Virus record (IMG/VR): IMGVR_UViG_3300036845_000183
Location: 1-55,180 of that record
Source of the DNA: a virus
Taxonomy: Duplodnaviria; Caudoviricetes
Reading direction: 5' to 3' (one strand)
DNA length: 55,180 bases
Shown: in pieces, positions 4,406-48,880 of the stretch
Layout of the letters: every line of letters starts with the position of its first letter
Numbering within the stretch: position 1 is the first letter of the stretch
Translations under genes and position numbers: made by a program
The notes under the pieces: model-generated
Seen by the model: only the letters and a program-made list of their open reading frames with translations
Database searches by the model: none
What the model was told of the DNA's origin: nothing

Positions 4406-4674
4406 GGTTTGCCTGTTCGCTTGAATCGACGACGCGACGCCCTCACGTCGTCAGCACGGCCCTTCCACATCTCGCATTCTTCGATTTCGTCTCGCAGTTC
4501 TGCGATCTCGGTTTCCGCGTCGGTCAGCGCCCGCAGGTCGTCCACGCAATCGAGGTAGAGTTGCGGCATGCCGGCTTCGATGCCCGCGTACCGCAGCCAG
4601 TCGAGAAAATCTTCGCGCGGCATCGTTGAGCTGAAGTGCTTTGTCTTGCGCCATGGCATCCAAGGTAGGGTCAT
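4402..4674 (-). CDS. Hypothetical protein (begins MTLPWMPW)
   Basis: Start overlaps upstream stop; coiled-coil-like C-terminus. Confidence 0.7.
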   Translation of the reverse strand: MTLPWMPWRKTKHFSSTMPREDFLDWLRYAGIEAGMPQLYLDCVDDLRALTDAETEIAELRDEIEECEMWKGRADDVRASRRRFKRTGKP

Positions 4675-4838
4675 AGGATGCACGCCACGAAAAAGAAACC
4701 GATGAACGCCAGCAGCAGCAACCACCGTTCGTCGAAGGTGACAGATCGCAGCGGTGGCGGCCCGAAGTCGTGGGAGAGCATGCGGCAGACCTCGGCGGTT
4801 GCGGCATGGCGGCGGTGTGCGTGCTGGCGGGGTGTCAT
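4671..4838 (-). CDS. Small protein with C-terminal TM helix
   Basis: GGAGGG SD; WLLLLAFIGFFFVACIL. Confidence 0.6.
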   Translation of the reverse strand: MTPRQHAHRRHAATAEVCRMLSHDFGPPPLRSVTFDERWLLLLAFIGFFFVACIL

Positions 4839-5035
4839 GCCTTGCCCTCCCTTTGGTAGCGCGCCCAGCGCATGGCGCACTCGGCGCCGCGGTCGTAGGC
4901 TTGCTTACCTACTTCGGTTTGCGGCCCGAGACTGGCCGGCGGGCTGTAACTACTGTTATAGTTTTCGAAGCCCGAATCGAACTCACGGAAGTTGTGATAC
5001 GGCGCATAAAGCGCCTTGAGCTGGTCCAGGGTCAT
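4835..5035 (-). CDS. Hypothetical protein
   Basis: Coupled ORF in early operon. Confidence 0.65.
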   Translation of the reverse strand: MTLDQLKALYAPYHNFREFDSGFENYNSSYSPPASLGPQTEVGKQAYDRGAECAMRWARYQREGKA

Positions 5036-5238
5036 GACGCGATCCTCCGTACGTTGATGGTTGTCGATGCGCCCCAGAGCGCCGAACGGCGCTTGCCGTC
5101 AACGTTCTGGAGCAGAACTCCGATCTTGCCGCGCGGCGTTTTCGCTCCTGCGGAGGTGTAGACCACGGTTTCGCCGGACCCGACGACGTCGCCCGGACGG
5201 AGGTATCGGGCGACGATTTTGGTGATTTGTTCGGTCAT
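5032..5238 (-). CDS. Hypothetical SH3-like small protein
   Basis: GGAGG SD; LRPGDVV motif. Confidence 0.65.
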   Translation of the reverse strand: MTEQITKIVARYLRPGDVVGSGETVVYTSAGAKTPRGKIGVLLQNVDGKRRSALWGASTTINVRRIAS

Positions 5239-5241
5239 CGT

Positions 5242-5433
5242 TCAGTCCTCCGCTTGAAACAGGAAATGACCCACCAAGCCGCGACCGCTAAGAAGCGTCG
5301 CAAGGTTGTCATTCAGGGTAGACAGTTCCATTTTGGCGTACCGGTTGCCGGCGGCAAGACGCGCTTCGGTCGCCGCGATGTCGCGCCTGATTTCAGCAAT
5401 TTTCTTGTCGACTCGCTTCTGACTGACCGCCAT
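5242..5433 (-). CDS. Hypothetical protein
   Basis: ORF in early operon. Confidence 0.6.
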   Translation of the reverse strand: MAVSQKRVDKKIAEIRRDIAATEARLAAGNRYAKMELSTLNDNLATLLSGRGLVGHFLFQAED

Positions 5434-5434
5434 G

Positions 5435-5599
5435 TCACGCCGCCTTCGAAAAGAGCTGCACGCCAGCGGGCGGGTTGGCGTTCTGCCAAGCGAAGTGCAG
5501 TTCCTCGGCGAAGAACAGCGCGTACGCCTTGCCGGTCTTGCAGAGGCCGAAACGGCGGCGGGCTTCGGCGTGGGCGGTCTTCATGATCTGGGATTTCAT
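5435..5599 (-). CDS. Small early protein MKSQIMKTAHAEARRRF...LFSKAA (54 aa, not in ORF track)
   Basis: Translated by hand; directly follows the conserved 17-bp leader. Confidence 0.7.
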   Translation of the reverse strand: MKSQIMKTAHAEARRRFGLCKTGKAYALFFAEELHFAWQNANPPAGVQLFSKAA

Positions 5600-5603
5600 C
5601 GGG

Positions 5604-5663
5604 TGCTCTCCAGCGGTTGTTGATGTACGTACGATAGCACGAGTTTCGAGATTGCCTAATCAC
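5604..5663 (-). promoter_or_regulatory. Early promoter plus conserved leader ACAACCGCTGGAGAGCA (copy 1)
   Basis: Exact 17-mer at 5604-5620; upstream GTGATT...GTGCTAT...GTACGTACAT resembles 48317-48375. Confidence 0.8.
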
Positions 5664-5679
5664 TTTTTATTACAAATTG

Positions 5680-6006
5680 TTACAGTCGCAGCTCCAGACC
5701 CAATTCCTGCGCCCGGTCCCACACCCGCGCCATCAGTTCGCCGATCAGCATCATTTCCGCGCCGGGCTGCGGCATGCCCAGGTCTTGAAACTCCGTTGTA
5801 CTGCCATCTGAGAAGCTGCACACGCCCCGCGGAATGATCTGGCCCCGCGGCGTGTTCACCACCATGCGCAGCTCGGGCCGCTCGCTGCGCACCAGCACAG
5901 CGGTGCATGCCACCATCGTCGCCAAGTCGCGCTGGATTAGCGCCACCGTCTCGGCGACGGGCGCAGGCTCCCAGGGCATGCGGTGCGGTACTAGGTTGTC
6001 AGTCAC
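5680..6006 (-). CDS. Hypothetical protein (MTDNLVPHRMPWE...)
   Basis: GTG start near the upstream gene's stop. Confidence 0.6.
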   Translation of the reverse strand: MTDNLVPHRMPWEPAPVAETVALIQRDLATMVACTAVLVRSERPELRMVVNTPRGQIIPRGVCSFSDGSTTEFQDLGMPQPGAEMMLIGELMARVWDRAQELGLELRL

Positions 6007-6247
6007 GTTCTTCAGGCATGAAAAGCGGAAACTCTGGCTTTGATTCAGTATCGACAATCCAGCCGCATACAGTGCAGCGCCGTGACGTCTCCGCCCTCGT
6101 CACTCCGATACCGTGCATGTCGATCACGCCGTCATCCATGAAAGAATGATCGTAACCAGCCTCGCGTAGCTTTCGCGCTATCTCATCGTATGCCGACTGC
6201 GACAGCTCAAGTTCGGCATACGTATGCGTAGAGGTCAGTTTTCCCAC
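5999..6247 (-). CDS. Hypothetical protein with CxxC
   Basis: AAGGAG SD; ORF track. Confidence 0.65.
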   Translation of the reverse strand: MGKLTSTHTYAELELSQSAYDEIARKLREAGYDHSFMDDGVIDMHGIGVTRAETSRRCTVCGWIVDTESKPEFPLFMPEERD

Positions 6248-6250
6248 AGT

Positions 6251-6424
6251 TCACTCCTTTGTTTGGCCGCACACCGGGCAAGTGGTCCATTGCTGTGCAG
6301 TAGAACACCACGCACACGGAGGCTTTTCGATCGGTGCCGGTTTGCCGAGATACCAGCTCCGATCGATGTAATCGCGCTGGTTGCTGACTGGCGTGCATTT
6401 CGGATCGAAACCTAAGTCTCCCAT
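6251..6424 (-). CDS. Small zinc-ribbon protein (57 aa, CAWC...CPVC; not in ORF track)
   Basis: Translated by hand; AAGGA SD. Confidence 0.55.
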   Translation of the reverse strand: MGDLGFDPKCTPVSNQRDYIDRSWYLGKPAPIEKPPCAWCSTAQQWTTCPVCGQTKE

Positions 6425-6543
6425 GGCATCTTTTCCTTCTTTGGCGGCGGTGGTTGATGTGTCGCGCCGAGACGGCAGCGCACGCCGTCAAGCAAAGGTT
6501 TGCCGCAGGCGCAAACACCGTCCCACTCGCCGTTGATGGTCAT
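6412..6543 (-). CDS. Small protein MTINGEWDGVCACGK...KKEKMPWET (43 aa; not in ORF track)
   Basis: Translated by hand; ATGA overlap with upstream stop. Confidence 0.55.
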   Translation of the reverse strand: MTINGEWDGVCACGKPLLDGVRCRLGATHQPPPPKKEKMPWET

Positions 6544-6794
6544 TTGTCGCTGATCAGCAAACGCATATAAAACTTATGGTCGCTCGCTTCCGGCCATGTA
6601 CGCCAGTATAGCGTACCTATTTTGTCTTTCGCGTAGGTGCGGAAAGCTTCGCGAGCCTCGTTTTCCGCGCCGAATCCTTCAAGTTTAACGTATGGTTCGC
6701 CTGTGGGCGCGTAGCCAGGTGCTTTCGGCGTAAACTGAACGACGTGGTACCCCTGTTCAAGTTCTTTGCGAAGCAGGTGCAAAATTACGCTCAC
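6540..6794 (-). CDS. Hypothetical protein
   Basis: GTGA overlap with the primase stop. Confidence 0.6.
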   Translation of the reverse strand: MSVILHLLRKELEQGYHVVQFTPKAPGYAPTGEPYVKLEGFGAENEAREAFRTYAKDKIGTLYWRTWPEASDHKFYMRLLISDK

Positions 6795-8827
6795 TTCCTT
6801 CCCTCCCAAGTCATCCAAGGCATAAGCAGTTCGTGCTTGACGCCGTTCACTGGCGCAAAAACCGCCAGGAACGGGCACCCGCGCATTGTACGGAAATATC
6901 CGCTGTCAAGCAAGCTTTTCAAGACGGCGCGCTCAAACATTTTTGCCGCAGCGTCCTTGTTGATGACATATCCGGGGCGTTCGTCGATTCTGTCGCCAAG
7001 TTCTTCCACACTCTCAAAGGTGACGATGTTTCCGGCTCGGAGGCCATTCATCCCGCCGGCAACTGCGCCAGGCAGCATCGCGGCCAGTCGCATCACGGCA
7101 TTTTGTTCTTGTTGTTCGGGCGGCAAGACAATCTCCCTCTTGAATACGTTCACAGTTGTGATTCGGCCTTTGCTGTCGGTGCCGTAGTTCTCCGACACGA
7201 TCCGGCCAATGTAGCTTTTGGCCTTCGGGGCGCCGCGGGCCTTGCCGCAGTCGATCGAAACCTGATCGCCCTTGCCGGCGGTGACGCGGTAGACAAAACC
7301 TGACTGAGCCGACTTGGCGCCGTTGCCTTTCTGCCACGCGTCTTCATTGCCGAGTGGCAGATGGTCCGTGACGATCGTTGCTGCAGCGGTTCGCTTCGCA
7401 ATCAGTTTGAGCACGAACATCGCCTTCAAAACCTTCTCGGTATCGTTGTCGGCGAAGCACAGCCCCGAGGCGCCCCAGGTGTCAACCACGATCAGATCGA
7501 CACGCTTGCCCATGGCGGCCATAGCTTGGACTTGGCCTAGGCACTGCGATTCGAACGCCAGAGGCTCGGGCACGCCGCGGATCAAATGGAACCTATCAGC
7601 CAGTTCGCCGCCATTCGATTCGAGACGGAGTAAGTGTCTCACGCGTCGTTCTGTGCCGTAATCGTCTTCAGCCGCGACCCATAGTACGTGACTGTCCAGC
7701 CGCTCAACATCAGCCTCAAGCCAACTTCGTCCAGCGAGCAAAGAAACAGCCATGTCGCTAACGACAGTGGATTTTCCCGCTCCAGAGTGCCCAGTAACGA
7801 AATGTAGTTCTCCGCAGAGAACACGCTGATGGAGCAACCATGGTAACTCTGCACTGCTATCCTCCAGTGAGATTTCAAAACCAGTTCGTGCAGCAACCAG
7901 CGTCGGCGCCGTTTGCGCGTCGTGCAGGCCTTGCAACATTGTGCGCCTGTTCATGATCGCTTGCATGATCAGGTTGCCGCGCAGCACGGGCAAGTCGTCG
8001 TGGCGCGAGATTTCTTCGCCTAGAGTGCGACCTCCGAGGCCTTCGTCAAGCGAGTGGCCAGCGCCAGTGATCGCGTCTTCAATTTCCTGCCGGACACAGA
8101 GGCCGTTCAGCTCGGCGAATTTCAGCACGCCAACTAAGGAAAAGATCGTTGAGCCGCGCCCTTCGGTGCGCCCCGTTAGCTCTTGTTTAAGTAGCCCGAG
8201 GTATCGTTGAGCAGCGTCTCGTCCTGCTTGCCATTCGTCCTGCGTTCTTGGCACGGCTTCTTTGAGTTCGTCGAGACTGGCAGTCTCATGGTCTGCAGAG
8301 AAGCGCAGCGAGGTTCCTGCACGCAAGGGTACTTCACTAAGGACTGATTGAAGCTGAGCACTCGTAAGTCGCGGCCACTCGGCGTCCCAGTTTTCCCAGA
8401 CATAATTTTCTCCTGTGTCCTTATGCGGACCGAAGGCGACGAACTGGCCGCCCATGAGCTGCAGCTTGTCGCCATCAGGAAACGTGAACGTGCGGCCGGT
8501 TACCGGAGTGTCGGTTAGGTAAAACGGAATGAGGAAACGAGGCTTCTTCCCCCAGCGTACCGGCACATCGTGCCCCAGCACGCCTCTAAATGCAGCAAGC
8601 AGTCGCATTGACGCGGATGCGTCGCCGCAATCAACATCAAAGGCGGTAAGCCCGCCATCGCCACAACGAAGACCGACGCCCCCGGCTCCAGGGTGTGGTA
8701 TTGGACTTGTCCAGACGTTCCAGCCTTCGCCGATCGGTCGTTTCGATCCTCGGGCGATTGCGAGGGGGAACAGGCCTCTTTGCGTCGCTTCATGCCAAAA
8801 CTCCTGAATTGAGGACGGAAACGGCAT
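6791..8827 (-). CDS. Primase(-polymerase)/helicase fusion: Prim-Pol-like N-terminus plus RecA-family AAA_25 ATPase
   Basis: GVGLRCG..AFDVD and GGQFVAFGPH; Walker A GHSGAGKS, WVAAED, Walker B LIVVDT. Confidence 0.88.
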   Translation of the reverse strand: MPFPSSIQEFWHEATQRGLFPLAIARGSKRPIGEGWNVWTSPIPHPGAGGVGLRCGDGGLTAFDVDCGDASASMRLLAAFRGVLGHDVPVRWGKKPRFLIPFYLTDTPVTGRTFTFPDGDKLQLMGGQFVAFGPHKDTGENYVWENWDAEWPRLTSAQLQSVLSEVPLRAGTSLRFSADHETASLDELKEAVPRTQDEWQAGRDAAQRYLGLLKQELTGRTEGRGSTIFSLVGVLKFAELNGLCVRQEIEDAITGAGHSLDEGLGGRTLGEEISRHDDLPVLRGNLIMQAIMNRRTMLQGLHDAQTAPTLVAARTGFEISLEDSSAELPWLLHQRVLCGELHFVTGHSGAGKSTVVSDMAVSLLAGRSWLEADVERLDSHVLWVAAEDDYGTERRVRHLLRLESNGGELADRFHLIRGVPEPLAFESQCLGQVQAMAAMGKRVDLIVVDTWGASGLCFADNDTEKVLKAMFVLKLIAKRTAAATIVTDHLPLGNEDAWQKGNGAKSAQSGFVYRVTAGKGDQVSIDCGKARGAPKAKSYIGRIVSENYGTDSKGRITTVNVFKREIVLPPEQQEQNAVMRLAAMLPGAVAGGMNGLRAGNIVTFESVEELGDRIDERPGYVINKDAAAKMFERAVLKSLLDSGYFRTMRGCPFLAVFAPVNGVKHELLMPWMTWEGRK

Positions 8828-9080: not shown

Positions 9081-9083
9081 AGC

Positions 9084-9229: not shown

Positions 9230-9290
9230 TGCTCTCCAGCGGTTGTTCGATGTACGTACATAGCACACCTAGAAGGGGTGTCAAGCCCCC
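9230..9290 (-). promoter_or_regulatory. Sigma70-like early promoter plus leader (copy 2)
   Basis: TTGACA...GCTATGTACGTACAT...ACAACCGCTGGAGAGCA. Confidence 0.8.
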
Positions 9291-9892
9291 TCAGCAATAA
9301 AAATCAAAATATTTCGAAACGGCAGGGGCGTCGCTTCGCGGTCCCGCGTCTTGTGCTTGCCGCCGACCATCGCCCCAATGCCGATACGCCTGGCTTTCTC
9401 GTATCCATAGCGTTCCAGCGCGACAGGATGCAGTCGTTGCGTGCCTTTCGTCCAGTTCAGTTCGGGCAAGTTCTTCGCCACAGCGTAAAGCCACGTCGGT
9501 TTGCGCGACGCATGGCCGTACCAACCCTGTTCGACGTAGCAGGAACGCCCGCCGTACTGGTCTAGCGCGGTCCATCCTTGATGCCTGACCGGCTTCACCA
9601 TGCCGTGTGCGGACCATGCGTGGCTGTCGCAAGGGTGTTCCAGCACGCCACTCCAACGACGTACCGAGGCCAGCGCGGAGGCGAAGCAACCGTGGTCGTC
9701 GCCTAGCTTGTGCTGGTGCGGTTTCCGCGGCGACCCGTGCCAGTACCGGCCCCAGCGCTGGCACGGAGGATGCGCCACTACAGGCCACGGACCCTCATAC
9801 AGCCGCGCGTCGCGGTCGATACCCCAGCAATCGACGGCCCAAGGCATGCCACTGTAGCAGCCCTGTGGGTCGACGAACAACGCTGCGATCAT
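9281..9892 (-). CDS. Minimal C5-cytosine methyltransferase-like protein
   Basis: HPPCQ (motif IV-like), VLEHP (ENV-like), YGH.SRKPTWLY, R..TP..F. Confidence 0.65.
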   Translation of the reverse strand: MIAALFVDPQGCYSGMPWAVDCWGIDRDARLYEGPWPVVAHPPCQRWGRYWHGSPRKPHQHKLGDDHGCFASALASVRRWSGVLEHPCDSHAWSAHGMVKPVRHQGWTALDQYGGRSCYVEQGWYGHASRKPTWLYAVAKNLPELNWTKGTQRLHPVALERYGYEKARRIGIGAMVGGKHKTRDREATPLPFRNILIFIAEGA

Positions 9893-10098: not shown

Positions 10099-10160
10099 TG
10101 CTCTCCAGCGGTTGTTGACGATTTGTATGTACACGCGTTCCGAAGGGGTGTCAAGCCCCC
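10099..10160 (-). promoter_or_regulatory. Sigma70-like early promoter plus leader (copy 3)
   Basis: GGGGGCTTGACACCCCTTC shared with copy 2; exact 17-mer at 10099-10115. Confidence 0.8.
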
Positions 10161-10618
10161 CAAGGCATTTTTTCTTTGGCCGTTTGCGCCATGGCGGCCG
10201 GCAGCTCGTATTTGGCTAGCCGAACTTTCAGTTCTTTCAACTCGGCATACAAGTAACTGAGTTCTTCGGTCATCGTTGCGTTGGCCATGCGGAGCCGCTC
10301 TAAATCTTCATCTCCACCGGGTTGTGCTGCAACCACATTAGAAACCGTAGGCCGCGACGTGCCGCCGCGGGAGCCGGGGCCGCCGTTCCTGCGCTGCGCC
10401 CGGCAGTTCGGGCAGTTCTTCATGAGCAAGCCGGCGTTCTTGGTGAAGCCCTGGAGCGCCTTCTTTGACACGTCAAGGCTGATGGTTGCCGAGCACGTTC
10501 CGCAGGGCCGGGTGACCCGGTAGAGATGGAGATAGTCTCCGTTCCAGTATTTGGTTACCGGCGCTCCGCCAGTCCAACCATCGGGAAATGAACCGTCCCA
10601 CGCTGCATGTCCGACCAT
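10151..10618 (-). CDS. Zinc-finger plus coiled-coil hypothetical protein
   Basis: CGTC...CPNC; ends KEKMPWGA. Confidence 0.7.
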   Translation of the reverse strand: MVGHAAWDGSFPDGWTGGAPVTKYWNGDYLHLYRVTRPCGTCSATISLDVSKKALQGFTKNAGLLMKNCPNCRAQRRNGGPGSRGGTSRPTVSNVVAAQPGGDEDLERLRMANATMTEELSYLYAELKELKVRLAKYELPAAMAQTAKEKMPWGA

Positions 10619-17866: not shown

Positions 17867-18178
17867 GTGCTTCCCTGGTTAAACCAGTTCCAACCCAAGC
17901 AACCTGAGACGCCGCGGCAAACCATGCTGCGGCGTATTGGCGAGGGCGTGCCCCTCGAACTGGCGACACGCGCTGCTGGCGTAACGATGGACAGCCTCAA
18001 GGGCGACCCGGAGGCTGACAAAGCGCTGGCCGAAGGCGAAATCCTGCTATTCGAGCGCGCACGCGACAGCGGCGTTACCGGCGTCGTCAGGGCTGCGATG
18101 CGTCGGGAGGCGAATAGTTGGCTTCCCAAGGCAGAGGTGCAGACTGGGCTTTCGCTGGAGGACTATCTGAAAGACTAG
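17867..18178 (+). CDS. Putative terminase small subunit / HTH protein
   Basis: IGEGVPLELATRAAGV HTH-like; A.AEGE..LF..A pattern of TerS-like proteins. Confidence 0.45.
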   Translation: MLPWLNQFQPKQPETPRQTMLRRIGEGVPLELATRAAGVTMDSLKGDPEADKALAEGEILLFERARDSGVTGVVRAAMRREANSWLPKAEVQTGLSLEDYLKD

Positions 18179-18308
18179 GCCAGACGACTTTCGGATTGTA
18201 ACCGGAGAACAGTGGCGGCCCTTCTCGCACTGACATCGGCGGCAAGTCCATAAACGGCGCGCGGTTGTCTTTGTCGCGTCGCAGCGCTTCGGGAATGTCT
18301 TCGTTCAT
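18087..18308 (-). CDS. Hypothetical Pro-rich protein (3' end overlaps the putative terS antisense)
   Basis: ATGA coupling with upstream ORF. Confidence 0.4.
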   Translation of the reverse strand: MNEDIPEALRRDKDNRAPFMDLPPMSVREGPPLFSGYNPKVVWPSLSDSPPAKAQSAPLPWEANYSPPDASQP

Positions 18309-18436
18309 CCCAGCCCCCATGGAAGCCCCAGCCACGGCGTCGGCTTCGATTTCAGGTCTCTCCGAACCAAGCGTACGATCCGGTATGCGTGTCGCGCCAC
18401 GCTAACGGCGCCGATTGCAGCAAGTACATAGATCAT
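18305..18436 (-). CDS. Small membrane-associated protein (ends PTPWLGLPWGLG)
   Basis: GGAGGG SD; ATGA overlap with gcrA stop. Confidence 0.55.
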   Translation of the reverse strand: MIYVLAAIGAVSVARHAYRIVRLVRRDLKSKPTPWLGLPWGLG

Positions 18437-18819
18437 ACAACCCTCCGTGAAACGTGTTGATGAAATGCGCAGTAGCGAAAATCTATCGTTGACAGACCGC
18501 AGAACATCGCACCAACCGGCCACTTGCACATGCCGTCTTTAAGCTGGTCGAAGGTCACGGCGTCATCGGGTGGCGGCTCCACAGGGACGATTTTCTTTGC
18601 CCGCGCCACTACGGGTTTCTTCTCATACACCCGATGTTGATGGCCGCCGAACTTCGTATTCAGCGATCTGATACCGTACCGGCTGCGGAAGCTCATGATG
18701 GCGTTTCGCGTAGTGCCGAGTTCTTTCGCGATGCTGAGGCCGGAGCCACCTTCGGCCGAAAGTTTCGTGACCGCGGACAAGCGGTCGTCGTGCGTCATGT
18801 TTGCCCAGATCATTTTCAA
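18433..18819 (-). CDS. gcrA: GcrA-like cell-cycle transcriptional regulator
   Basis: S...IAKELGTTRNAI HTH and L....CKWPVG..FCG...YCAFH C-terminal motif. Confidence 0.88.
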   Translation of the reverse strand: MKMIWANMTHDDRLSAVTKLSAEGGSGLSIAKELGTTRNAIMSFRSRYGIRSLNTKFGGHQHRVYEKKPVVARAKKIVPVEPPPDDAVTFDQLKDGMCKWPVGAMFCGLSTIDFRYCAFHQHVSRRVV

Positions 18820-26819: not shown

Positions 26820-26828
26820 GAGGCGGCC

Positions 26829-41314: not shown

Positions 41315-42193
41315 TCAGGCAGCTTTGGCCATCGGTGGCAACCAGTCGGGCGGCGCGGGCAGCTTGATATCTGGCGCCAGCCGCGCGGCCAGCGGCCGAT
41401 GAAAGTCGATGACCGACAGAAGTGCCAACCCGGCATCCGCGGCTTTCGGTCGCGGGCCGACTGAACGCGCCGCCATGTCGATACGCGGCCAACCAAGGTC
41501 CACCAGCCGGCGGCCGTGCTCCCGAATGGCCGGGTAGTGGTGCACCAGCCAGACGAAGCCCAGCGTTGCGTGCTCGGTCACCAAGGCATTCGCAGGCGCC
41601 AGTCCGGCAATCAGCTCCAGCGCGGCGTTCAGCTCGCCAAGCGGCACTGGAGCGGCCCGTTTGGCGTAACTCGGCGAGCCATGGCCGAACAGCGATTTCA
41701 GCGCTCCGATGCATGCGATCTTGGGAACTGCGAATTCTTGCTGCGCTATGTTGGCGTCCACGATCGCCAAGCCGGCCTCCTGTACCAGCCTGTTCAGCGC
41801 AATCGCTTCCGGGTCGCCGGCCGCCACTTCGGCCATGAATAGCATGCCCTGCGGAACCTTGCGGATGCGCGTGTTGCAGGCGAGGAAGATTTCGATTTCG
41901 CGTTTGCGGTCGTGCACGTCGTAAATGTCGCACGGCAGCACCTCGCGGCCAGCAATCAAGCCGCCCTCCCATCGGTGGCGACCGTCTACCACAAACAGCG
42001 CTCCGTTCGCGCGGCGCACAACCCGGAGCCGGCCGAACACGGCGAGGTCGAAATGACGGCCGATTTCACGTATCAGCCGCGGGTTGCGAGGTGCGATAGC
42101 CTGGTAGGTGGTGTCGATGTTGAGTAGCGAGGCCGGCACGTCGGCGGGCTCGGGTCGTTCTTCCAGCATCATCTCCCAGGGGAGTAAGTTCAT
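41315..42193 (-). CDS. ParB/Srx-like N-terminal domain protein (DUF6551-like)
   Basis: LNID..YQ...FD....G.L.V..R.....VVDGRHR; E..IF...N. Confidence 0.8.
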   Translation of the reverse strand: MNLLPWEMMLEERPEPADVPASLLNIDTTYQAIAPRNPRLIREIGRHFDLAVFGRLRVVRRANGALFVVDGRHRWEGGLIAGREVLPCDIYDVHDRKREIEIFLACNTRIRKVPQGMLFMAEVAAGDPEAIALNRLVQEAGLAIVDANIAQQEFAVPKIACIGALKSLFGHGSPSYAKRAAPVPLGELNAALELIAGLAPANALVTEHATLGFVWLVHHYPAIREHGRRLVDLGWPRIDMAARSVGPRPKAADAGLALLSVIDFHRPLAARLAPDIKLPAPPDWLPPMAKAA

Positions 42194-42328: not shown

Positions 42329-42553
42329 ATGACGGGAGACGGGTATTTTTGGGCTCGGACGCCCAAGGGAGAGCTATTTGTAGTGCTGGTCGTCAGCGGG
42401 CAGGGCTATGTGGCCGCCGTTGAGTGTGCTATAGATTTGGTGCAAATCGATATTCTGGAGCCCGTCGCGTGGCCTACGGCATCCGCAGCCCCAAACCAAA
42501 GTTCCGACCGTACGAAACATGGGCTGCATGTAGTCGGTGCAATGCTCGCGTAG
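42329..42553 (+). CDS. Hypothetical protein
   Basis: GAGGG SD. Confidence 0.5.
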   Translation: MTGDGYFWARTPKGELFVVLVVSGQGYVAAVECAIDLVQIDILEPVAWPTASAAPNQSSDRTKHGLHVVGAMLA

Positions 42554-43083
42554 CGTACCGCACCTTGGCCCGAGAGAGGCTCACTGGCTTGCTGGTTTGC
42601 ACGAAGGCCTCGGGCCGCGCGGTACGGCCTTGTCTCGACCCTTGGCCGGCGGTGTACGATTTCCAGGCCTTTCCCGACAAGTCAATCGAACCGCCGCCGG
42701 AACCCTTACCGCTGCGCTACAATCTGGACGCCATATGGGGCAGCGGCCCCGTGTCCGGCACGACGGCGACCTTTGCCAACGCTCCGGCGCCGGCCCCCGA
42801 CGATGCGACGCGATTGAATGCGCTGGTGAAGTCGGTGCCGTACTACGCCACGATCGGCAAGTCAGCGGCATTCCCGCCTATCAACCCATCGGTGCAGCAG
42901 ACCATTCTTGACGCGGTCACCATCATACCGGCAAACTACGACGGTACATTTTTGCCCTCCAGCTCGGTTCGAACCGTGACGCCGCCGAACGAAGCTGCTG
43001 AACTGGCCGCGGCCTCCGGCATGGACCCGGACGTCACCGACAAGATATGGTCGCCACCATGGACCGTGAACCAAGGAATATAA
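42469..43083 (+). CDS. Zinc-finger-bearing putative virion protein
   Basis: CSRC...L..E..TGLLVC...CLD; GGAG SD before GTG. Confidence 0.7.
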   Translation: MAYGIRSPKPKFRPYETWAACSRCNARVAYRTLARERLTGLLVCTKASGRAVRPCLDPWPAVYDFQAFPDKSIEPPPEPLPLRYNLDAIWGSGPVSGTTATFANAPAPAPDDATRLNALVKSVPYYATIGKSAAFPPINPSVQQTILDAVTIIPANYDGTFLPSSSVRTVTPPNEAAELAAASGMDPDVTDKIWSPPWTVNQGI

Positions 43084-44158: not shown

Positions 44159-44170
44159 TGGTGCGACAAA

Positions 44171-45643
44171 ATGCCGCCGCTTAATATTTTAGGCTCCTTT
44201 GCGGACCCGCTCAATCTCGACCAGGGCGCCGGGAAGCTCGTCAACGTACGCGTGGTGCCGCGCGCTGCGGAGGAAGGCAAGCCGTCGTCGGTGCGCTTCA
44301 TCGGTGCGCCTGGTCTGGATGCAGTCTGCCGGCCGACGTCCGCGGCGTGTCTCGTGCTTTGCCATGCACAGGATACGGTGTGGAGTGGCCACGCGGATGG
44401 CTCAATCTTCCGCGGCGTCGAAACAGCATCGCCCGTGTTCGTCGGCACTGTGGCCGTAAACCCTCTTGCACCAATCATCCGATTCGCTGAAGAACGCACC
44501 GCGCTTTGCATTGCATCCAACGCAAATGTGCTTGGCGGCGGCCGTGCGGGCACCAGCTACACCGCGTCACTTGCCGGCGGCCTGACTAATTCCGGTTTTG
44601 ATTCCTCCATAAACTTCGACCCGACTGCTACCGTCGTGCTCGATAACTTTGCTGTGTGGTCTGGCGCATCTAATTTCTACGCAAATCAAAGCGACCGGAT
44701 GTACAGCTCGGTTGCGTTACAGCCGGCAAACGTGTTGCCGAACAGCTTCGCAACAAAAGAAGCGCGTTCTGATCGCGTCGTTGACCTGGCAATATCGGGC
44801 CGCATCCTGTGGCCGCTCGGTTCGCGGTCGCTGGAGCAATGGTACGATCCCGGCGGTGCCACGGATTTTGCTTTCGTCGCCTACCCCAATTCACTGCTTT
44901 CCGTAGGTCTGGCCGCGCGGCTGACGCTGGCCGTATTACGCGACCGAATCGTGTTCGTGGGTACGGATCGCCGCGTGTGGCTTTGCGAGGGTCAATCCGG
45001 GCAAGCGGTATCGCCAGCATGGGTCGATCTGCTTTTGCAGCAACTCACGCTGGCCCAGTTAGGGCAGCTTACCGGGTACGCCTACGGCCAAGGTGGTAGC
45101 GATTTCTACGTGCTCACGCTGCCTAACCAGTGGTCCCTGGAGCTGGCGGCCTCCGGCGTGTGGTCCTATCGGCAGTCGCCAGGGCGGCTTGACCACGCCG
45201 GGCGTTGCGCTACGGAGCATGACGGCGGCGTGACCTACATCGGGCTCGACAGCGGCCAGGTATGCACACTCGACATTGACAGCGCCGCGGAGCCGGCCGG
45301 CACGCTGGCCAGAACCATGATTACGCCATGGGTCGGCGGCAGCGCGGGGAACCTGCTTTCGTCGGGCACCAGCGGACAGGAAACGCGCCAGACCTTCAAC
45401 ACGATCGACATTACGTCGTCCATGGGGCCGTCAGCCGGTACGTTTCAGCTCGATTGGAGCGAAGACCGCGCCGTGACATGGCGCGGTGTCCGGCAGATCA
45501 CACTGCCGCAACCGGGTACGCAGCGCGCCATCGCCCGCGATCTCGGAACTGGCCGGCGCCGGCAGTTTCGTTTGCAGTACAGCGGCACGCAAGCGCCATT
45601 TACGATCGATGAATGGTTTGCGGGAGTTACGCCGGGCACATGA
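44171..45643 (+). CDS. Tail hub / packaged-DNA stabilisation protein (P22 gp10-like)
   Basis: 490 aa beta-rich; FAT.E..SD, G..S.E.W, G..FYVLT, L.WS.D...TW, LG.GR.R.F. Confidence 0.85.
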   Translation: MPPLNILGSFADPLNLDQGAGKLVNVRVVPRAAEEGKPSSVRFIGAPGLDAVCRPTSAACLVLCHAQDTVWSGHADGSIFRGVETASPVFVGTVAVNPLAPIIRFAEERTALCIASNANVLGGGRAGTSYTASLAGGLTNSGFDSSINFDPTATVVLDNFAVWSGASNFYANQSDRMYSSVALQPANVLPNSFATKEARSDRVVDLAISGRILWPLGSRSLEQWYDPGGATDFAFVAYPNSLLSVGLAARLTLAVLRDRIVFVGTDRRVWLCEGQSGQAVSPAWVDLLLQQLTLAQLGQLTGYAYGQGGSDFYVLTLPNQWSLELAASGVWSYRQSPGRLDHAGRCATEHDGGVTYIGLDSGQVCTLDIDSAAEPAGTLARTMITPWVGGSAGNLLSSGTSGQETRQTFNTIDITSSMGPSAGTFQLDWSEDRAVTWRGVRQITLPQPGTQRAIARDLGTGRRRQFRLQYSGTQAPFTIDEWFAGVTPGT

Positions 45644-46134
45644 CACAGAAGATCCCGCCGCCGCCGAATCTGGCCAAAGAAAATCCGCAGCTTAACCGTT
45701 GGCTACTGGAAGTGACGTCCATCCTCAATTCGCAGGGCGCCGTCACTCAAAGTTCGGTCGCCGGCTTGAACGATATCGTAGTGCAAGTTGGCAGCAACAC
45801 GGTCGACATCACGGCGTTGAGCGCCCAAGTTACGACGAACACCGCCAACATCGCCACGAATACCGCCAACATCGCCACGAATACCGCCAACATCGCCACG
45901 AACACCGCCAACATCGCCACGAACACCGCCAACATCGCCACGAACACCGCCAACATCGCCACGAACACCGCCAACATCGCCACGCTGACGGCGCGCAACC
46001 AAGTGTTCAGCGGCGCAGGCGCTCCGGCTGCTGGCCTTGGCGTCAACGGCGACTGGTACGGCAACACAACGGGCGGTGCAGGCGCCAGGATCTACATCAA
46101 GATCGCGGGGACGTGGACGGCGTTTGCGTTCTGA
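45640..46134 (+). CDS. Tail needle (gp26-like trimeric coiled coil) with C-terminal knob
   Basis: Heptads TNTANIA x7; GVNGDWY...IYIK.AGTW; follows gp10-like gene. Confidence 0.75.
   Translation: MTQKIPPPPNLAKENPQLNRWLLEVTSILNSQGAVTQSSVAGLNDIVVQVGSNTVDITALSAQVTTNTANIATNTANIATNTANIATNTANIATNTANIATNTANIATNTANIATLTARNQVFSGAGAPAAGLGVNGDWYGNTTGGAGARIYIKIAGTWTAFAF
45835..45981 (+). repeat. 21-bp tandem repeat x7 (ACGAAYACCGCCAACATCGCC)
   Basis: Direct reading; only C/T variation at one wobble position. Confidence 0.95.
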
Positions 46135-46513: not shown

Positions 46514-46676
46514 GCTGTTCCTCCAAGGGTGGTAACCACGCCTCCAGGGCTGCCTGGACGGCCTCTGAGCGACTGTTGGCGCCGACGTCAATGTTGCGCA
46601 CTACGAAGTCTATGCGAGCCACCAGGGAGGCCGGCACACGTGCGGAAATCATGATCGTTTTGCGTTCGGATGCCAT
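46476..46676 (-). CDS. Ribbon-helix-helix (CopG-like) regulator
   Basis: MISARVP..L..RID......SRSEAV..AL..WL. Confidence 0.8.
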   Translation of the reverse strand: MASERKTIMISARVPASLVARIDFVVRNIDVGANSRSEAVQAALEAWLPPLEEQLEKLGVLTKKAR

Positions 46677-46725
46677 CAGTGCTAGTCTGTACTCCGAAAA
46701 TGTATGACATTGCAAGGGGCTCGGC

Positions 46726-47490
46726 ATGGCCGGTTTTGGCGAGGGTTTGGGGCAGATCATCGGGGCGCAGGAGGCCTCGGGCGACCTGAACGCCGGCTTG
46801 ATGAACGTCAACGGCACGTCGCGCACTGGCTTGGCAGGCATCAGCGATACAGCGAACGCGGGCGTCGCGAACATCAACGCTACGGCGGGTACCTTCGGGC
46901 CACAAGTGCAGCCGTACAATCAGTTTGGCCAGTCGTTCCTGGCGCCGACGACCGCCGCGGCGCAGGGTGTGCAGAACACCGCCAACGCGGGGGTGACTTC
47001 GTACGACGATTTCATGAAGAACTACCAGACGTCGCCGGCTGAGAAGTACCTGACCCAGCAAGCCGACGCGACGCAGAACAGCAGCGCGGCAGCGCACGGC
47101 GGCTTGCTTTCCGGTGCCAACGAGCGGGCGCTGAGCGGCATCAATGAAGGCATCGCCAGTCAGTACAGCAATCAGGCTTACCAAAATTATCTCCAAGGCA
47201 ACCAGCAGCATTTCGGCCAGCTCGAAACCGCCTTCGGCAACATGCTCGGTTCGATCGGCGTTGGCACCACGGCTACCGGACAGCAAGCCGGCGTCACCAC
47301 GGCGCAGATGGGTAACCAAGCTGGCATAACCGCCAGCCAACTAAGCCAGCAAGGCAACATCGACGTCGGCCAGATGAACAATCAATCATCGATCGCCCAG
47401 GCTCAGGCGAAGAACGATCAGAGCAAGGGTTCCGGCCTGGGATCGATGTTTTCCGGCATGAGTTCGATATTGCCAGCGTTCGCGTTTTGA
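46726..47490 (+). CDS. DNA-transfer/ejection protein (P22 gp7-like)
   Basis: Gln/Gly/Ala-rich; PY.Q.G, SP...Y...Q......SAAA.GGLLSGA...AL. Confidence 0.8.
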   Translation: MAGFGEGLGQIIGAQEASGDLNAGLMNVNGTSRTGLAGISDTANAGVANINATAGTFGPQVQPYNQFGQSFLAPTTAAAQGVQNTANAGVTSYDDFMKNYQTSPAEKYLTQQADATQNSSAAAHGGLLSGANERALSGINEGIASQYSNQAYQNYLQGNQQHFGQLETAFGNMLGSIGVGTTATGQQAGVTTAQMGNQAGITASQLSQQGNIDVGQMNNQSSIAQAQAKNDQSKGSGLGSMFSGMSSILPAFAF

Positions 47491-47634
47491 TCGTAAATAA
47501 ATTCCACAGTTTCTCGTCTCAAGAAACCGCTATTGTAAGCAGATATCTCGGTATCCGACACTGTGAGGCAGCGCCACCATGGAATGTTTGGGGCGCAGCC
47601 GGTCGCGTAAGTCACCCGGCATTTGAACACTACG

Positions 47635-48138
47635 TCACCTCGTTATCGAGTACGAAAAAACGTCCTGCGGTTCGTGGCTCAGGTTCGGGAACACTTCGAA
47701 CCGTCGCAGCCGGCCCTCACGTTCTGCACCCATGCGTGACAGTACCCTTTGTACGGGCAAATTGTCAACATGGCAGTACGCCCAAACACGCCAAATGTTC
47801 GGGTGCGTGAAGATCCACGTCACGAACGGAACCGACAGTTCCCGGCCGGCGCCGCGGGCTTTCTGGGTGCGGTTGAATGCGATTGTCAGCGCGACTTGAT
47901 GGCCTTGGGCTTCCATGCCGACGATGCCTAGGAACTTCGCATCGTCCAGCACGGCCAGCCATCGCGTCGGCGACGTAGCGTAGCGCTCGATCAACGCCGA
48001 CGCCTCCGCAACGCCCCGGAGCTGCCGCAAGCCCATGTAGCGCACCGTCTGCGCATCGCCGAACAGCGCGAGCAGCTCCGGGGCGTCCCATAGATTGACG
48101 TCCCGGAGGGTAAAACGGCCAAGGGTGGCGGATGTCAC
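47635..48138 (-). CDS. GNAT N-acetyltransferase (RimJ/RimL-like)
   Basis: RGAG, RVWAYC.VDN...QRVL..MG...EG.LRR. Confidence 0.85.
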   Translation of the reverse strand: MTSATLGRFTLRDVNLWDAPELLALFGDAQTVRYMGLRQLRGVAEASALIERYATSPTRWLAVLDDAKFLGIVGMEAQGHQVALTIAFNRTQKARGAGRELSVPFVTWIFTHPNIWRVWAYCHVDNLPVQRVLSRMGAEREGRLRRFEVFPNLSHEPQDVFSYSITR

Positions 48139-48314
48139 TCAGCACGCTCGCGGTTGAGGAAGGGCTTGCGCAGCGTCGGCGCCTTCACGGGCCTGCGGGT
48201 ATTGAATGCTACGAACGGGTTGGCGAGGGCCGTGACGGGCTTCAGCACTGAGATCGGCATTTTGTCGGTAACGAAGCGGTAATCGTTGGCGGGAAGTTCG
48301 GTCTTGTGGGTCAT
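48135..48314 (-). CDS. Small early protein (MTHKTELP...)
   Basis: Follows leader copy 6. Confidence 0.65.
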   Translation of the reverse strand: MTHKTELPANDYRFVTDKMPISVLKPVTALANPFVAFNTRRPVKAPTLRKPFLNRERAE

Positions 48315-48316
48315 GT

Positions 48317-48375
48317 TGCTCTCCAGCGGTTGTCGATGTACGTACATAGCACGTTTCGCCCCACAGCCCAATCAC
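48317..48375 (-). promoter_or_regulatory. Early promoter plus leader (copy 6)
   Basis: Exact 17-mer at 48317-48333; ATGTACGTACAT palindrome at 48336-48347. Confidence 0.8.
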
Positions 48376-48382
48376 ATTTTCG

Positions 48383-48880
48383 TTACTCCCACGGCATCCG
48401 TTCTGGTGCGGCCTCTAGAGGCGGCATGTCTTCCGGGCGCAATTGGAACACGAGCAAACCCGCCTTTGTCTGTCCGACGTAGCGAAAACCAGCTAAAACC
48501 CATGTGCGGCCCCATGTCGGACAACTTCGAATGGTCGTCGGCTGTACTTTTGTGTGATCGATGAACGTCACCATGCCTAACGTGGGTGGCTCGCCATATA
48601 CGGCACGCGTGGCCGCTACGGCTTGACGTATTAGATCGGACGCAGCCCCAGCACCTTCGGAACGGAACGCGGAACACACCCATGCGCCAGCCCACGCATG
48701 CTTAACGTACTCCGCAAATGGCCACGAAGTCACCCAAAAAGCACGTTGGCAGTCGGATAGCAGAACCACACAACGACCCGGCGGTACGAATTGCGGGCTG
48801 CCGACCTTCTGTCGGTTGTAGTGTCGGTCTGCCAGTGGCAACGCCATGGGGTCCGCACGGTGGCTCCTACGCCATTTCAT
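48383..48880 (-). CDS. Conserved phage protein, possibly Mom/GNAT-like
   Basis: ADRHY.RQ..G..QF.PPG; CS.FR.EG; MVTF.D..K; AGF..VG.TK; ends PERMPWE. Confidence 0.6.
   Translation of the reverse strand: MKWRRSHRADPMALPLADRHYNRQKVGSPQFVPPGRCVVLLSDCQRAFWVTSWPFAEYVKHAWAGAWVCSAFRSEGAGAASDLIRQAVAATRAVYGEPPTLGMVTFIDHTKVQPTTIRSCPTWGRTWVLAGFRYVGQTKAGLLVFQLRPEDMPPLEAAPERMPWE

Follow-up and report, generated by a model that had tools for sequence, protein, structure and literature searches.

A hydrophobic-Pro-Trp peptide motif at the termini of unrelated proteins in an uncultured phage clade, with a possible role in docking on a shared platform

Distribution of the PhiPW motif

The window, that is, the whole 55,180-nt stretch of DNA analysed here, is a complete phage contig of about 55 kb from a large, uncultured clade. 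At least nine (about ten) of its unrelated proteins carry a hydrophobic-Pro-Trp tripeptide (M/F/Y/L-Pro-Trp, hereafter PhiPW), often as PhiPW[EQ] and in Pro/Lys-rich surroundings, 0-9 residues from an end. The carriers are non-structural: a primase-helicase, two Zn-finger proteins, a GNAT/Mom-like protein, the large terminase (TerL), a ParB-like protein and several small proteins. A six-frame scan of the window with three-frame views located all eleven peptides listed in an earlier note on this DNA; nine are backed by conservation in relatives and two, at 9839 and 18317, are unsupported. All counts in relatives are drawn from kin sequences, so that the events are not independent. The C-terminal sites are as follows.

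6421..6429, minus strand: MPW of the tail ...KKEKMPWET-stop, 43-aa Zn-ribbon-like protein (gene 6412..6543); ORF views, family conservation
6422..6424, minus strand: ATG within the CC-ATG-G of the same Pro-Trp codons, putative start of ORF 6251..6424 (57 aa, CxxC...CxxC); ORF view
6815..6823, minus strand: MPW in the tail ...HELLMPWMTWEGRK-stop, Prim-Pol/AAA_25 primase-helicase (gene 6791..8827); Pfam, tail alignments
10160..10168, minus strand: MPW of ...AKEKMPWGA-stop, Zn-finger and coiled-coil protein (gene 10151..10618); ORF views, alignment A3
48389..48397, minus strand: MPW of ...APERMPWE-stop, GNAT/Mom-like protein beside the DNA polymerase (gene 48383..48880; longest ORF to 48913); PHROG hit, structure model, fold matches, tail comparisons

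Homologues of the 6412..6543 protein (NGEWDG.CACGK...LGATH) were found at 25 loci, and PW lies within the last 6 residues in 15 of 24 family members. The ATG at 6422..6424 is a putative start because ORF 6251..6424 has no homologue in loci L001-L064. At the primase-helicase C-terminus, PhiPW is present at 28 of 28 loci and in 110 of 120 cluster representatives, where the residue before PW is F (48), M (44), Y (6) or L (5). The residue after W is most commonly Q (54/104), not E, and a Q stands three residues ahead of the hydrophobic position in 25 of 104 distinct tails (background 4.4%). Two copies lie 8-16 residues apart in 93 primase-helicase tails, the inner one often being IPF, and Zn-ribbon tails hold 1-5 copies; the window primase-helicase retains its inner MPW while the outer (last) copy has decayed to TW. 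The tail motif of the 10151..10618 family is found in 24 of 26 relatives, and P152 and W153 are two of only seven invariant columns in alignment A3 (22 sequences, 29-64% identical to the window protein), the remainder being three Zn-site Cys, one Trp and one Arg. The TGA stop of this gene sits within TTGACA, a -35-like hexamer.

Five further carriers bear the motif at the N-terminus.

4651..4668, minus strand: LPW-MPW at the N-terminus MT-LPWMPW-RK, protein of about 90 aa (gene 4402..4674); relatives compared
5971..5979, minus strand: MPW of the N-terminus (M)PWEPAPVAETVALIQ, protein of about 100 aa (gene 5680..5979; 5680..6006 if GTG is used); relatives compared
17870..17878, plus strand: LPW of the N-terminus M-LPW-LNQFQP, 103-aa all-helical protein (gene 17867..18178); relatives compared
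32591..32599, plus strand: LPW of the N-terminus M-LPW-ETPAPT, large terminase (gene 32588..34126); relatives compared
42176..42184, minus strand: LPW of the N-terminus MNL-LPW-EMM, ParB-like/DUF6551 protein (gene 41315..42193); PHROG/Pfam, alignment A4

The N-terminal motif recurs in 6 of 7 distinct relatives of the 4402..4674 protein, in 23 of 23 for the 5680..5979 family (Pro codons CCC 7, CCA 7, CCG 6, CCT 3), in 7 of 8 for the 103-aa protein and in 21 of 21 for the ParB-like protein, with P5, W6 and E7 invariant in alignment A4. The former designation of the 103-aa protein as a putative TerS found no confirmation. All 13 distinct TerL relatives have the N-terminal PhiPW; none of the TerL representatives whose identity is 44% or lower has PW at the N-terminus, and only 4 of 150 representatives have it in the first 25 residues. 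On these comparisons, the TerL motif is a clade-specific gain.

Three other sites are doubtful or were rejected.

43057..43062, plus strand: PW in ...WSPPWTVNQGI-stop, 7 residues before the end of protein 42424..43083, a possible extra member; relatives compared
18317..18325, minus strand: LPW of ...PTPWLGLPWGLG-stop, ORF 18305..18529, taken from the earlier note and unsupported; ORF only
9839..9847, minus strand: MPW 14-16 residues into protein 9281..9892, rejected as a member; homologue comparison

Relatives of 42424..43083 keep [PYV]PW at the site ([PY]PW in all but four), and membership is uncertain because the residue before PW is mostly P. ORF 18305..18529 overlaps a GcrA-like gene (18433..18813, Pfam) and has no homologue in loci L001-L064. 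The SGMPW at 9839 was ruled out as a terminal motif, as it belongs to an internal conserved block, G[MQ]PWAVDCW, with Q as the first residue in a homologue. Nor did any match bear out the description of this protein as methyltransferase-like: in the scans of submitted ORFs, PHROGs gave an unnamed family only and Pfam nothing.

Selection on the peptide and not on the DNA

PhiPW is a real, terminal and conserved motif that is selected as a peptide. We shuffled residues in 90 window ORFs picked blind to the motif, a set that undercounts since the longest ORFs were used for 4402.., 5680.. and 41315.. and 48383..48913 is missing from it; [MLFYWIV]PW fell in the last 10 residues of 3 proteins (0.22 expected, P=0.0008), in the first 15 residues of 2 (0.43 expected, P=0.07) and, with both ends pooled, in 5 (0.65 expected, P=0.0004). 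Across 43 related sequences (765,140 nt with 10,312 ORFs of at least 45 codons), PW is found 59 times with one residue between it and the stop, 41 times with two and 31 times with three; at positions 4-39 before the stop it is found 9-28 times per position (mean 17.4). At the nucleotide level, the window holds ATGCCNTGG 8 times, all on the minus strand, versus 1.83 expected (0/100 shuffles reach 8), and CCNTGGGAG 7 times versus 1.51 expected (0/100 shuffles).

Sites of this kind may also be made by DNA. Start-associated or boundary sequences at phage gene junctions, for instance those of cluster K mycobacteriophages, are likewise recurrent short elements at gene boundaries that overlap translation-initiation signals, but they are DNA or RNA elements regardless of frame, whereas PhiPW is frame-locked and its synonymous sites vary. 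The Pro-Trp codons could be a junction by-product, in which case the peptide would do nothing by itself; the signal behind them might be an overlapping start (CC-NTG-G), a TGGGAG ribosome-binding site, an upstream element of a promoter or a recombination linker. Several junctions have this appearance. The Pro codon of the primase-helicase tail is CCA or CCG at 28 of 28 loci and RTG opens the next gene, and among the 67 distinct C-terminal contexts there are 42 whose NTG within CC-NTG-G opens an ORF of at least 40 codons. CCC is rare in the C-terminal contexts, at 3/67, compared with 21% for Pro codons in general. The ...PKESFPW tails have an AAGGAG 8 nt upstream, TGGGAGG is the ribosome-binding site of gene 6540..6794, and the 10151 family tail adjoins TTGACA.

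The reading frame speaks against this as the general cause. In 815 genes called comparatively, the CCNTGG matches at codons -5 to -3 before the stop number 69 for the Pro-Trp frame and 4 for the two remaining frames combined, with baselines of 1.5, 2.3 and 1.0 per codon position. Moreover, no such ORF follows in 25 of the 67 C-terminal contexts, several of which precede terminators or promoters, and the hydrophobic position swaps non-synonymously among M, F, Y and L. The TGGGAG string is not required, because in primase-helicase tails W is most often followed by Q rather than E. Ordinary start codons do not favour a CC..G context either: among 288 starts with a ribosome-binding site, CC is found at -2/-1 in 43, G at +4 in 81 and both in 17. 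Codon usage points the same way, with all four Pro codons at motif sites, as the earlier note had said, CCC used freely at N-terminal sites (14/49), and TTT/TTC, TAT/TAC and CCN all variable at TerL N-termini. A nucleic-acid by-product is thus largely refuted as the general cause and we regard it as highly improbable; the next-gene start codon in CC-NTG-G is a side effect at C-termini. The earlier note had proposed that selection acts at the protein level on a short linear motif at protein ends, and since enrichment over shuffles is present and conservation is tied to the frame rather than to the DNA, both having been tested, this proposal is supported. It had missed the next-gene start within the Pro-Trp codons.

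GNAT/Mom-like tails and a possible link to the sliding clamp

A peptide-level function, as a docking site or a tag, is very probable for PhiPW. Its shape recalls the C-terminal tip of bacterial SSB (consensus DDDIPF) in that both have a Phi-P-aromatic tripeptide, IPF versus MPW or FPW, but SSB offers one tail to many partner pockets while here many proteins bear the tail, which has no acidic run and does not require a free C-terminus.

Comparison of GNAT/Mom-like proteins suggests a different parallel. The nearest homologues of 48383..48913 in the database supply 117 distinct tails, of which 10 have PhiPW (shuffled 0.6), 51 have [PGAS]LF (shuffled 3.8, maximum 10; interior 6/843) and none has both. 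In homologues from other phages, xLF or QLxLF-type tails occupy the PhiPW position, and a set of 67 distinct tails from IMG/VR contains 15 that fit Q..[LMIFV][FWLYM] (shuffled mean 3.4, maximum 8; interior 0/542 windows) and 11 with the hexapeptide form. Q-anchored patterns are not enriched in the 117 nearest tails (5 versus a shuffled mean of 6.6), so the xLF tails are called clamp-binding by resemblance only. There is also a long form of the motif, x-L-[TV]-Phi-P-[WF], as in ELTIPF, SLTIPW, NLTYPW and PLTFPW, which is similar to the Hda and HdaA hexapeptides given next.

Beta-clamp partners carry terminal peptides, namely QL(S/D)LF at protein ends (PMC9690074) and the N-terminal hexapeptides QLSLPL of E. 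coli Hda and QFKLPL of Caulobacter HdaA (PMC3836487). These motifs resemble PhiPW in being short hydrophobic peptides placed right at one end, N- or C-terminal, of many DNA-transaction proteins that are not related to each other, in the Phi-P-Phi ending of the hexapeptide, in the Q or L often found at the matching upstream register of PhiPW tails and in the alternation of xLF and PhiPW tails at one place in the GNAT-like family. PhiPW is a short linear motif, and the N- and C-terminal tails that bear it are flexible. We hypothesize that it may dock all of its ten or so unrelated carriers on a single platform located on replicating phage DNA. The leading candidate for this platform is the host beta sliding clamp, in which case PhiPW would be a Trp-based version of the clamp-binding hexapeptide (QL[SP]LPL type). 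Recruitment to one hub, like any binding by PhiPW, is something we infer from sequence; this reading as a whole seems to us evenly poised, and the clamp itself a tentative though reasonable candidate for the receptor.

If this were true, one ring would anchor replication, DNA modification and packaging alike, much as T4 gp45 gathers replication, transcription and packaging proteins on DNA by terminal peptides (PMC9690074 and PMC9026906). There, gp33 and gp55 bind gp45 via a C-terminal LDFL (PMC9690074), and TerL (gp17) is linked through gp55, which it binds and which in turn binds the clamp (PMC9026906), whereas here TerL itself bears the peptide. T4 also encodes its own clamp, while a search for DnaN domains found none encoded in the window. 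This result, and the lack of canonical pentapeptide tails among the 67 clade families with at least three members, are in keeping with the proposed reading.

Several features argue against the clamp or set PhiPW apart from known clamp-binding motifs. It differs from these in the obligatory Trp, the mostly absent Q and the E/Q and Pro-rich sequel. We found no published clamp consensus that fits both the residues after Trp and the many N-terminal sites with a Pro-rich sequel (PWEPxP). Up to five copies per tail would be unusual for clamp binders, a pocket that the universal QLxLF already fits would not be expected to have a binding motif confined to a single phage clade, and the apparent positional equivalence comes from one family only. 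The phage module is, furthermore, T7-type, with a family-A polymerase (PHROG hit; Pfam score below cut-off) and a gp2.5-like SSB, and the polymerase of T7 needs no clamp to be processive (PMC9690074), which by analogy would speak against one here.

Other receptors and readers

A clade-private motif would suit a clade-private receptor, and the platform could belong to the phage replisome and not to the host, as either the DNA polymerase (48877..50790) or the gp2.5-like SSB (51888..52685). The window's T7-type module comprises the polymerase, the SSB, an exonuclease and the primase-helicase; the last has two tail copies, and the SSB family has an aromatic tail of its own, ...NPF[AG][PQ]R-stop. 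In T7, the gp4 and gp2.5 C-terminal tails dock on the polymerase likewise. The gp2.5 tail anchors to the polymerase's front basic patch, and in PDB 6P7E a DTDF peptide stands in for the tail of gp4 on gp5 (PMC12339929). However, the T7 tails are acidic with the aromatic residue last, whereas those here are Lys/Pro-rich with residues after Trp. Half of the sites are N-terminal, and TerL, ParB-like and GNAT-like proteins have no known link to a T7-type polymerase. With clamp-like tails at the same place in GNAT-like homologues as well, we consider a replisome receptor rather unlikely.

Less likely still is a degradation or localisation tag, read by a protease/unfoldase or by a membrane or polar scaffold for timed turnover or placement of early proteins. 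Terminal peptides do serve as recognition signals in the ClpX signal classes, and PhiPW resembles such signals in its occurrence at either end and at variable distance from it; the carriers are, in addition, non-structural. Against this, TerL is needed late in infection and no phage protease was found in the PHROG or Pfam scans of submitted ORFs, while docking is better fitted by the several copies per tail and by the mutual exclusion of PhiPW and xLF tails in the GNAT-like family.

PhiPW peptides at protein ends

PhiPW, a hydrophobic-Pro-Trp peptide (M, F, Y or L before Pro-Trp, often with E or Q after it) found near protein ends, is a real feature of this phage and is conserved throughout a large clade. 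All eleven terminal [ML]PW peptides listed in the earlier note were located where it had placed them by a six-frame scan and three-frame views. The window holds 8 copies of ATGCCNTGG against 1.83 expected and 7 of CCNTGGGAG against 1.51, with 0 of 100 shuffles as high in either case. The concentration at protein ends was also borne out when we shuffled the residues of 90 window ORFs picked motif-blind: PhiPW was found at 3 C-termini against 0.22 by shuffling (P=0.0008), at 2 N-termini against 0.43 (P=0.07) and at 5 ends pooled against 0.65 (P=0.0004). This set is conservative, because the longest ORFs mask three N-terminal cases and 48383..48913, which encodes a GNAT/Mom-like protein and is a gene on the strength of its PHROG match (6e-45), is absent from it.

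The same pattern was seen in 43 related sequences. Among their 10,312 ORFs, PW with 1, 2 or 3 residues between it and the stop codon occurred 59, 41 and 31 times, against 9-28 times per position further inside (mean 17.4). PW began at residue 2, 3 or 4 after the first candidate start in 13, 19 and 13 of 4,758 ORFs, and at residues 2-4 after interior start-like codons in 22, 14 and 16 of 15,309, an N-terminal excess of about three-fold.

The genome and its clade

The window is a complete single-contig record of 55,180 bases, classed as virus with a completeness estimate of 100%. PHROG and Pfam scans gave the following gene content:

2798..4405, SNF2-type helicase
6791..8827, Prim-Pol + AAA_25 primase-helicase
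18433..18813, GcrA-like protein
32588..34126, TerL
41315..42193, ParB-like/DUF6551 protein
48877..50790, family-A DNA polymerase
51888..52685, gp2.5-like SSB
also exonucleases, endonuclease VII, a capsid protein and a 1323-aa transglycosylase-bearing protein

No near relative was found among the 50,697 deposited phage genomes of INPHARED, where the primase-helicase had no match, the GNAT-like protein was matched in only 6 records, and TerL was about 30% identical to TerLs of Vibrio and Pseudoalteromonas phages. Many relatives, 63-80% identical in protein sequence and mostly on contigs of 51-54 kb, are present in IMG/VR, and from them we took 28 loci around the primase-helicase, 14 around TerL and 22 around the ParB-like gene. 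The protein database gave 154 primase-helicase clusters at E <= 0.001, and the best 120 of the 154 were examined. A profile search for distant ParB-like relatives returned the same clade again. The GcrA-like protein matches Pfam PF07750 at 33.2 bits (cut-off 26.9) over its C-terminal part only, which hints at an alphaproteobacterial host; a scan of GTDB genomes with the primase-helicase gave no match, and a database search with the GcrA-like protein returned only itself and one fragmentary relative.

Conservation of terminal PhiPW by family

Primase-helicase, C-terminus: 28/28 loci; 110 among the best 120 of 154 representatives
Primase-helicase, second Phi-P-[WFY] copy 8-16 residues upstream: 93 among the best 120 of 154 representatives
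Family of 10151..10618 (Zn-finger/coiled-coil): 24/26
Zn-ribbon family of 6412..6543: 15/24 within the last six residues; 1-5 copies per tail
TerL, N-terminus: 13/13 distinct relatives
Family of 5680..5979: 23/23
Family of 17867..18178 (all-helical): 7/8
Family of 4402..4674: 6/7
ParB-like: 21/21

In the primase-helicase representatives (best 120 of 154) the residue before PW is F in 48, M in 44, Y in 6 and L in 5. The window's own primase-helicase is an exception, with its inner MPW intact and its last copy now TW, which sits within a ribosome-binding-site-like stretch. By strict criteria the C-terminal form is present in 4 of 67 families with at least three members, and the N-terminal form in 3 of 67 plus the 5680 family, in counts drawn from loci that span only part of each genome. 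Families were counted with a homology-based gene caller limited to the regions within those loci; codon-model callers overlooked the small real genes 6412..6543 and 48383..48913.

Two sites from the earlier note fell away on comparison with homologues. SGMPW at 9839 is not a member: it belongs to an internal block, and a homologue has Q as the first residue of that block. The site in ORF 18305..18529 is also unsupported, that ORF having no detectable homologue in the 64 loci L001-L064. The six-frame scan also caught an internal E-L-P-W in the primase-helicase (7838-7846), where E327, L328 and W330 are invariant and P329 nearly so in the family alignment; this is a fold element, not a terminal motif.

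The label of putative TerS that the note gave to 17867..18178 found no match in PHROG or Pfam. Its model (pLDDT 72) is all-helical and gave no Foldseek row below E=1, with Sf6 TerS at E=5. The C-terminus of this family reads ..Q.GLSLED[YL]L[KR]D*; 3 of the 8 members fit a QLxLxL-type pattern there, and judging from the model this end may simply be a helix.

The PW-rich ORF that follows the primase-helicase in the relative L011 is a real Zn-ribbon protein. Its PhiPW-rich disordered tail overlaps, in another frame, the opening ~40 codons of the following gene (L011 12210-12490; also in L012, L014, L026 and L028), a small protein with an MFPW.. start whose relatives end ..YP.D....PhiPWE*. The two are a possible overprinted gene pair, since both frames look conserved.

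Selection on the peptide

If the DNA were conserved whatever the frame, as the earlier note allowed, PhiPW would be a by-product of a nucleic-acid signal; five results point to the peptide instead. Among 815 homology-called genes, CCNTGG at codons -5 to -3 from the stop lies in the Pro-Trp frame 69 times against 4 in the other two frames, with interior baselines of 1.5, 2.3 and 1.0 per codon position in the three frames. Position 1 varies non-synonymously among M, F, Y and L, with F written TTT or TTC, Y TAT or TAC, and P CCN. In the Zn-finger/coiled-coil family, 22 sequences that are 29-64% identical to the window's and have very different linker lengths share only 7 invariant columns: two from the tail (P and W), three Cys of the Zn site, and a single Trp and Arg. 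After many PhiPW tails comes a terminator hairpin or a promoter and no gene start, and in 25 of 67 distinct C-terminal contexts no ORF of at least 40 codons starts at the inner NTG. Finally, RBS-supported ordinary starts have CC at -2/-1 in 43 of 288 cases, G at +4 in 81 and both in only 17, so these phages do not use CC..G as a start context. Junction elements of DNA or RNA (Shine-Dalgarno, start context, boundary sequences) are conserved independently of frame, and PhiPW differs from them in its frame bias, its synonymous variation and its CC..G context, unlike that of general starts.

A nucleic-acid layer is nevertheless truly present on top of this peptide selection. In 42 of the 67 C-terminal contexts the NTG within CC-NTG-G opens an ORF of at least 40 codons. 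At all 28 primase-helicase loci Pro is CCA or CCG and the resulting ATG or GTG starts the gene that follows; AAGGAG frequently lies eight bases 5' of that start and is read in the tail as Lys-Glu. The Pro codon CCC is scarce at C-terminal sites, with 3 of 67, against 14 of 49 at N-terminal sites and 21% of all Pro codons. From these frame, substitution and codon results we conclude that selection acts on the peptide and that the next start codon is often placed inside the Pro-Trp codons, an arrangement that would amount to genome economy and a neat example of overlapping coding constraints.

A promoter-like TTGACA-N17-TACAT(A/G) followed by a conserved palindromic block GTACATGTACGTACATCG was seen at window positions 10130-10160 and 48330-48385, and the same arrangement lies 3' of the 10151-family gene in L009, L011, L012, L014, L016, L026 and L028. 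The upstream gene's TGA stop falls within the -35 hexamer TTGACA. In relatives GTACA also recurs ahead of the ParB-like gene, between its ribosome-binding site and its start, and the GTACATGTACGTACATCG/GTACA block may be an operator.

Candidate receptors for PhiPW

Hub-and-tail wiring, as in clamp-binding motifs, PIP boxes and SSB tails, coordinates cellular DNA transactions, and to our knowledge its phage examples come mainly from T4 and T7. PhiPW carriers are non-structural, DNA-acting proteins that bear the motif 0-9 residues from an end, in segments that are Pro/Lys-rich, length-variable and often multi-copy. Because it is terminal and has these properties, PhiPW has the signature of a docking motif, and very probably serves in docking or as a tag. 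The prediction that homologues in other clades would lack it held for TerL: only 4 of 150 representatives have PW in the first 25 residues, and N-terminal PW is absent at <=44% identity. Judging by these homologues, PhiPW is private to the clade.

Among known systems the closest likeness is to peptides that bind the beta clamp, DnaN. In excerpts of PMC9690074 and PMC3836487, clamp-binding motifs are short peptides in exposed N-terminal, C-terminal or linker segments of DNA-transaction proteins; PhiPW is likewise an exposed terminal peptide on such proteins. The bacterial pentapeptide is given as QL(S/D)LF in part of PMC9690074, and a hexapeptide class ending Phi-P-Phi as QL[SP]LPL in part of PMC3836487, which cites Dalrymple 2001 and Kurz 2004, with N-terminal examples in E. 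coli Hda (QLSLPL) and Caulobacter HdaA (QFKLPL). Phi4-P5-W6 of PhiPW fits this hexapeptide, whereas the consensus Q1 and hydrophobic residues 2, 4 and 5/6 are only partly present: 25 of 104 distinct primase-helicase tails have Q three residues ahead of Phi (background 4.4%), L occupies position 2 in xL[TV]PhiP[WF] forms, and most [KR]-M-P-W-E tails have neither. Longer clade forms that align with the hexapeptide are ELTIPF, SLTIPW, ELLMPW, NLTYPW and PLTFPW.

Only the GNAT/Mom-like protein offers a comparative clue to what PhiPW binds. The model of 48383..48913 is confident (pLDDT 94.3) and matched GNAT folds only weakly, phage Mu Mom (8bv8, E 0.04) among them; a PDB profile search with the family found nothing below E=0.7. 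With 6,922 proteins at E <= 1e-10 this is a very large family, and we compared tails from loci L065-L141 and database proteins P0273-P0392. In other phage clades a conserved ...P.DMP.P linker leads to QLSLF, QLRLFT, QLSLW, QLNLF, QLGLAL and similar ends. Of 67 distinct IMG/VR tails, 15 carry Q..[LMIFV][FWLYM] (shuffled mean 3.4, max 8; interior 0/542 windows) and a further 11 fit the hexapeptide form, with only 1 of 77 ending in PW. The nearest database homologues supply 117 distinct tails, of which 51 carry [PGAS]LF (shuffled 3.8, max 10; interior 6/843), most within ...PRSMHGxPLFD..., and 10 carry PhiPW (shuffled 0.6). No tail has both, so PhiPW and xLF are alternatives at one position. Q-anchored patterns number 5 in this nearer set, no more than the 6.6 of the shuffles. 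Small windows of ±3 kb around the GNAT-like gene of other clades gave only one more clamp-like tail, QLPLWEII*. If the reading is true, the clamp-tethering of a DNA-modifying enzyme would be notable in its own right.

There is precedent by analogy for a phage that brings its replication, transcription and packaging together on a clamp. Phage Mu MuC reportedly enlists the beta clamp. T4 gp33 and gp55 bind gp45 through a C-terminal LDFL, according to an excerpt of PMC9690074, and T4 TerL binds gp55, according to one of PMC9026906. No DnaN domain is encoded in the window, and none of the 67 clade families has a canonical pentapeptide tail. Several points weigh against the clamp. The swap with a canonical-type tail at the same position comes from the GNAT/Mom-like family only; its nearer set lacks Q-anchored enrichment, and the xLF tails are clamp-binding by resemblance. 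The replication module is T7-type, and T7 polymerase is described as clamp-independent in part of PMC9690074; the tails of T7 gp4 and gp2.5 dock on that polymerase, according to part of PMC12339929, and the SSB family here has an aromatic tail of its own. A clade-private motif suggests a clade-private receptor, and up to five copies per tail would be unusual among clamp binders. Caulobacter DnaN (Swiss-Prot reference) co-folded with residues 625-678 of the window's primase-helicase, using the family alignment, scored 0.09 against a mark of 0.32, which speaks neither for nor against. Because of the points against it, we put the host clamp as receptor, given a docking or tag function, at somewhat less than an even chance.

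It is rather unlikely that the receptor is instead a phage replisome protein. The T7 gp4 and gp2.5 tails are acidic with the aromatic residue last, whereas PhiPW tails are K/R/P-rich with 0-4 residues after W, and the motif is also N-terminal. The SSB tip DDDIPF likewise differs: SSB itself carries it, and it combines an acidic stretch with a terminal Phe carboxylate, whereas PhiPW is found on partner-type proteins. The aromatic tail of the SSB family here is NPF[AG][PQ]R; in 51888-52685 and homologues this gp2.5-like tail reads ...SPFS..NPF[AG][PQ]R* and is non-acidic, unlike the acidic, Phe-terminated tail of T7 gp2.5. Two conserved early proteins without known function were considered as possible receptors, and an ESM Atlas search with them gave no usable match. 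A degradation or localisation tag seems improbable. A limited literature search found nothing relevant on a terminal Pro-Trp motif in phage proteins.

With many proteins sharing one terminal peptide, PhiPW appears to behave like a clamp-binding or PIP-type motif, and we would place it with hub-docking terminal motifs as a variant without filing it as a member of the clamp-binding or PIP-type family. We tentatively hypothesize that it may be a clade-private interaction code, gained independently by at least ten proteins and read by one receptor, either a new clamp-binding chemotype or an unrecognised phage-encoded platform. Such a code would gather the primase-helicase, the Zn-finger factors, the Mom-like DNA modifier, the ParB-like protein and both ends of the packaging pathway into one DNA-bound assembly. 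In this uncultured clade of ~52-kb phages, for which the protein database has at least 154 clusters of the primase-helicase, one tripeptide marks about 10-15% of genes, including TerL and the primase-helicase. Its receptor, if found, would reveal physically coupled phage processes and offer a handle for annotating many 'hypothetical' small proteins as replisome or packaging parts. Were it DnaN, a Trp-based chemotype would join the clamp-binding peptides, which are drug leads.

Repeats and paralogous genes

The contig ends (1-2728 and 52520-55180) form a diverged direct repeat. Its flanks are 98-99% identical (1-212 with 52520-52731; 2484-2728 with 54936-55180), and its middle, 77-89% identical, carries an exonuclease and two small genes. 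This looks like assembly once round a circularly permuted or terminally redundant genome of ~52.4 kb into a co-occurring variant, a size consistent with the relatives' 51-54 kb contigs. Gene 45640..46134 contains seven tandem 21-nt units (AACACCGCCAACATCGCCACG) at 45796-46005 that encode a seven-residue repeat. Positions 26181-31764 hold a run of paralogous genes of one family, in which 26181..26819 and 26898..27266 share a C-terminal ..NPLYTSED.HA and the genes starting at 27263, 28570 and 30550 share an N-terminal MSY(N/S)(S/P)T.D; these are probably tail-fibre or receptor-binding proteins.
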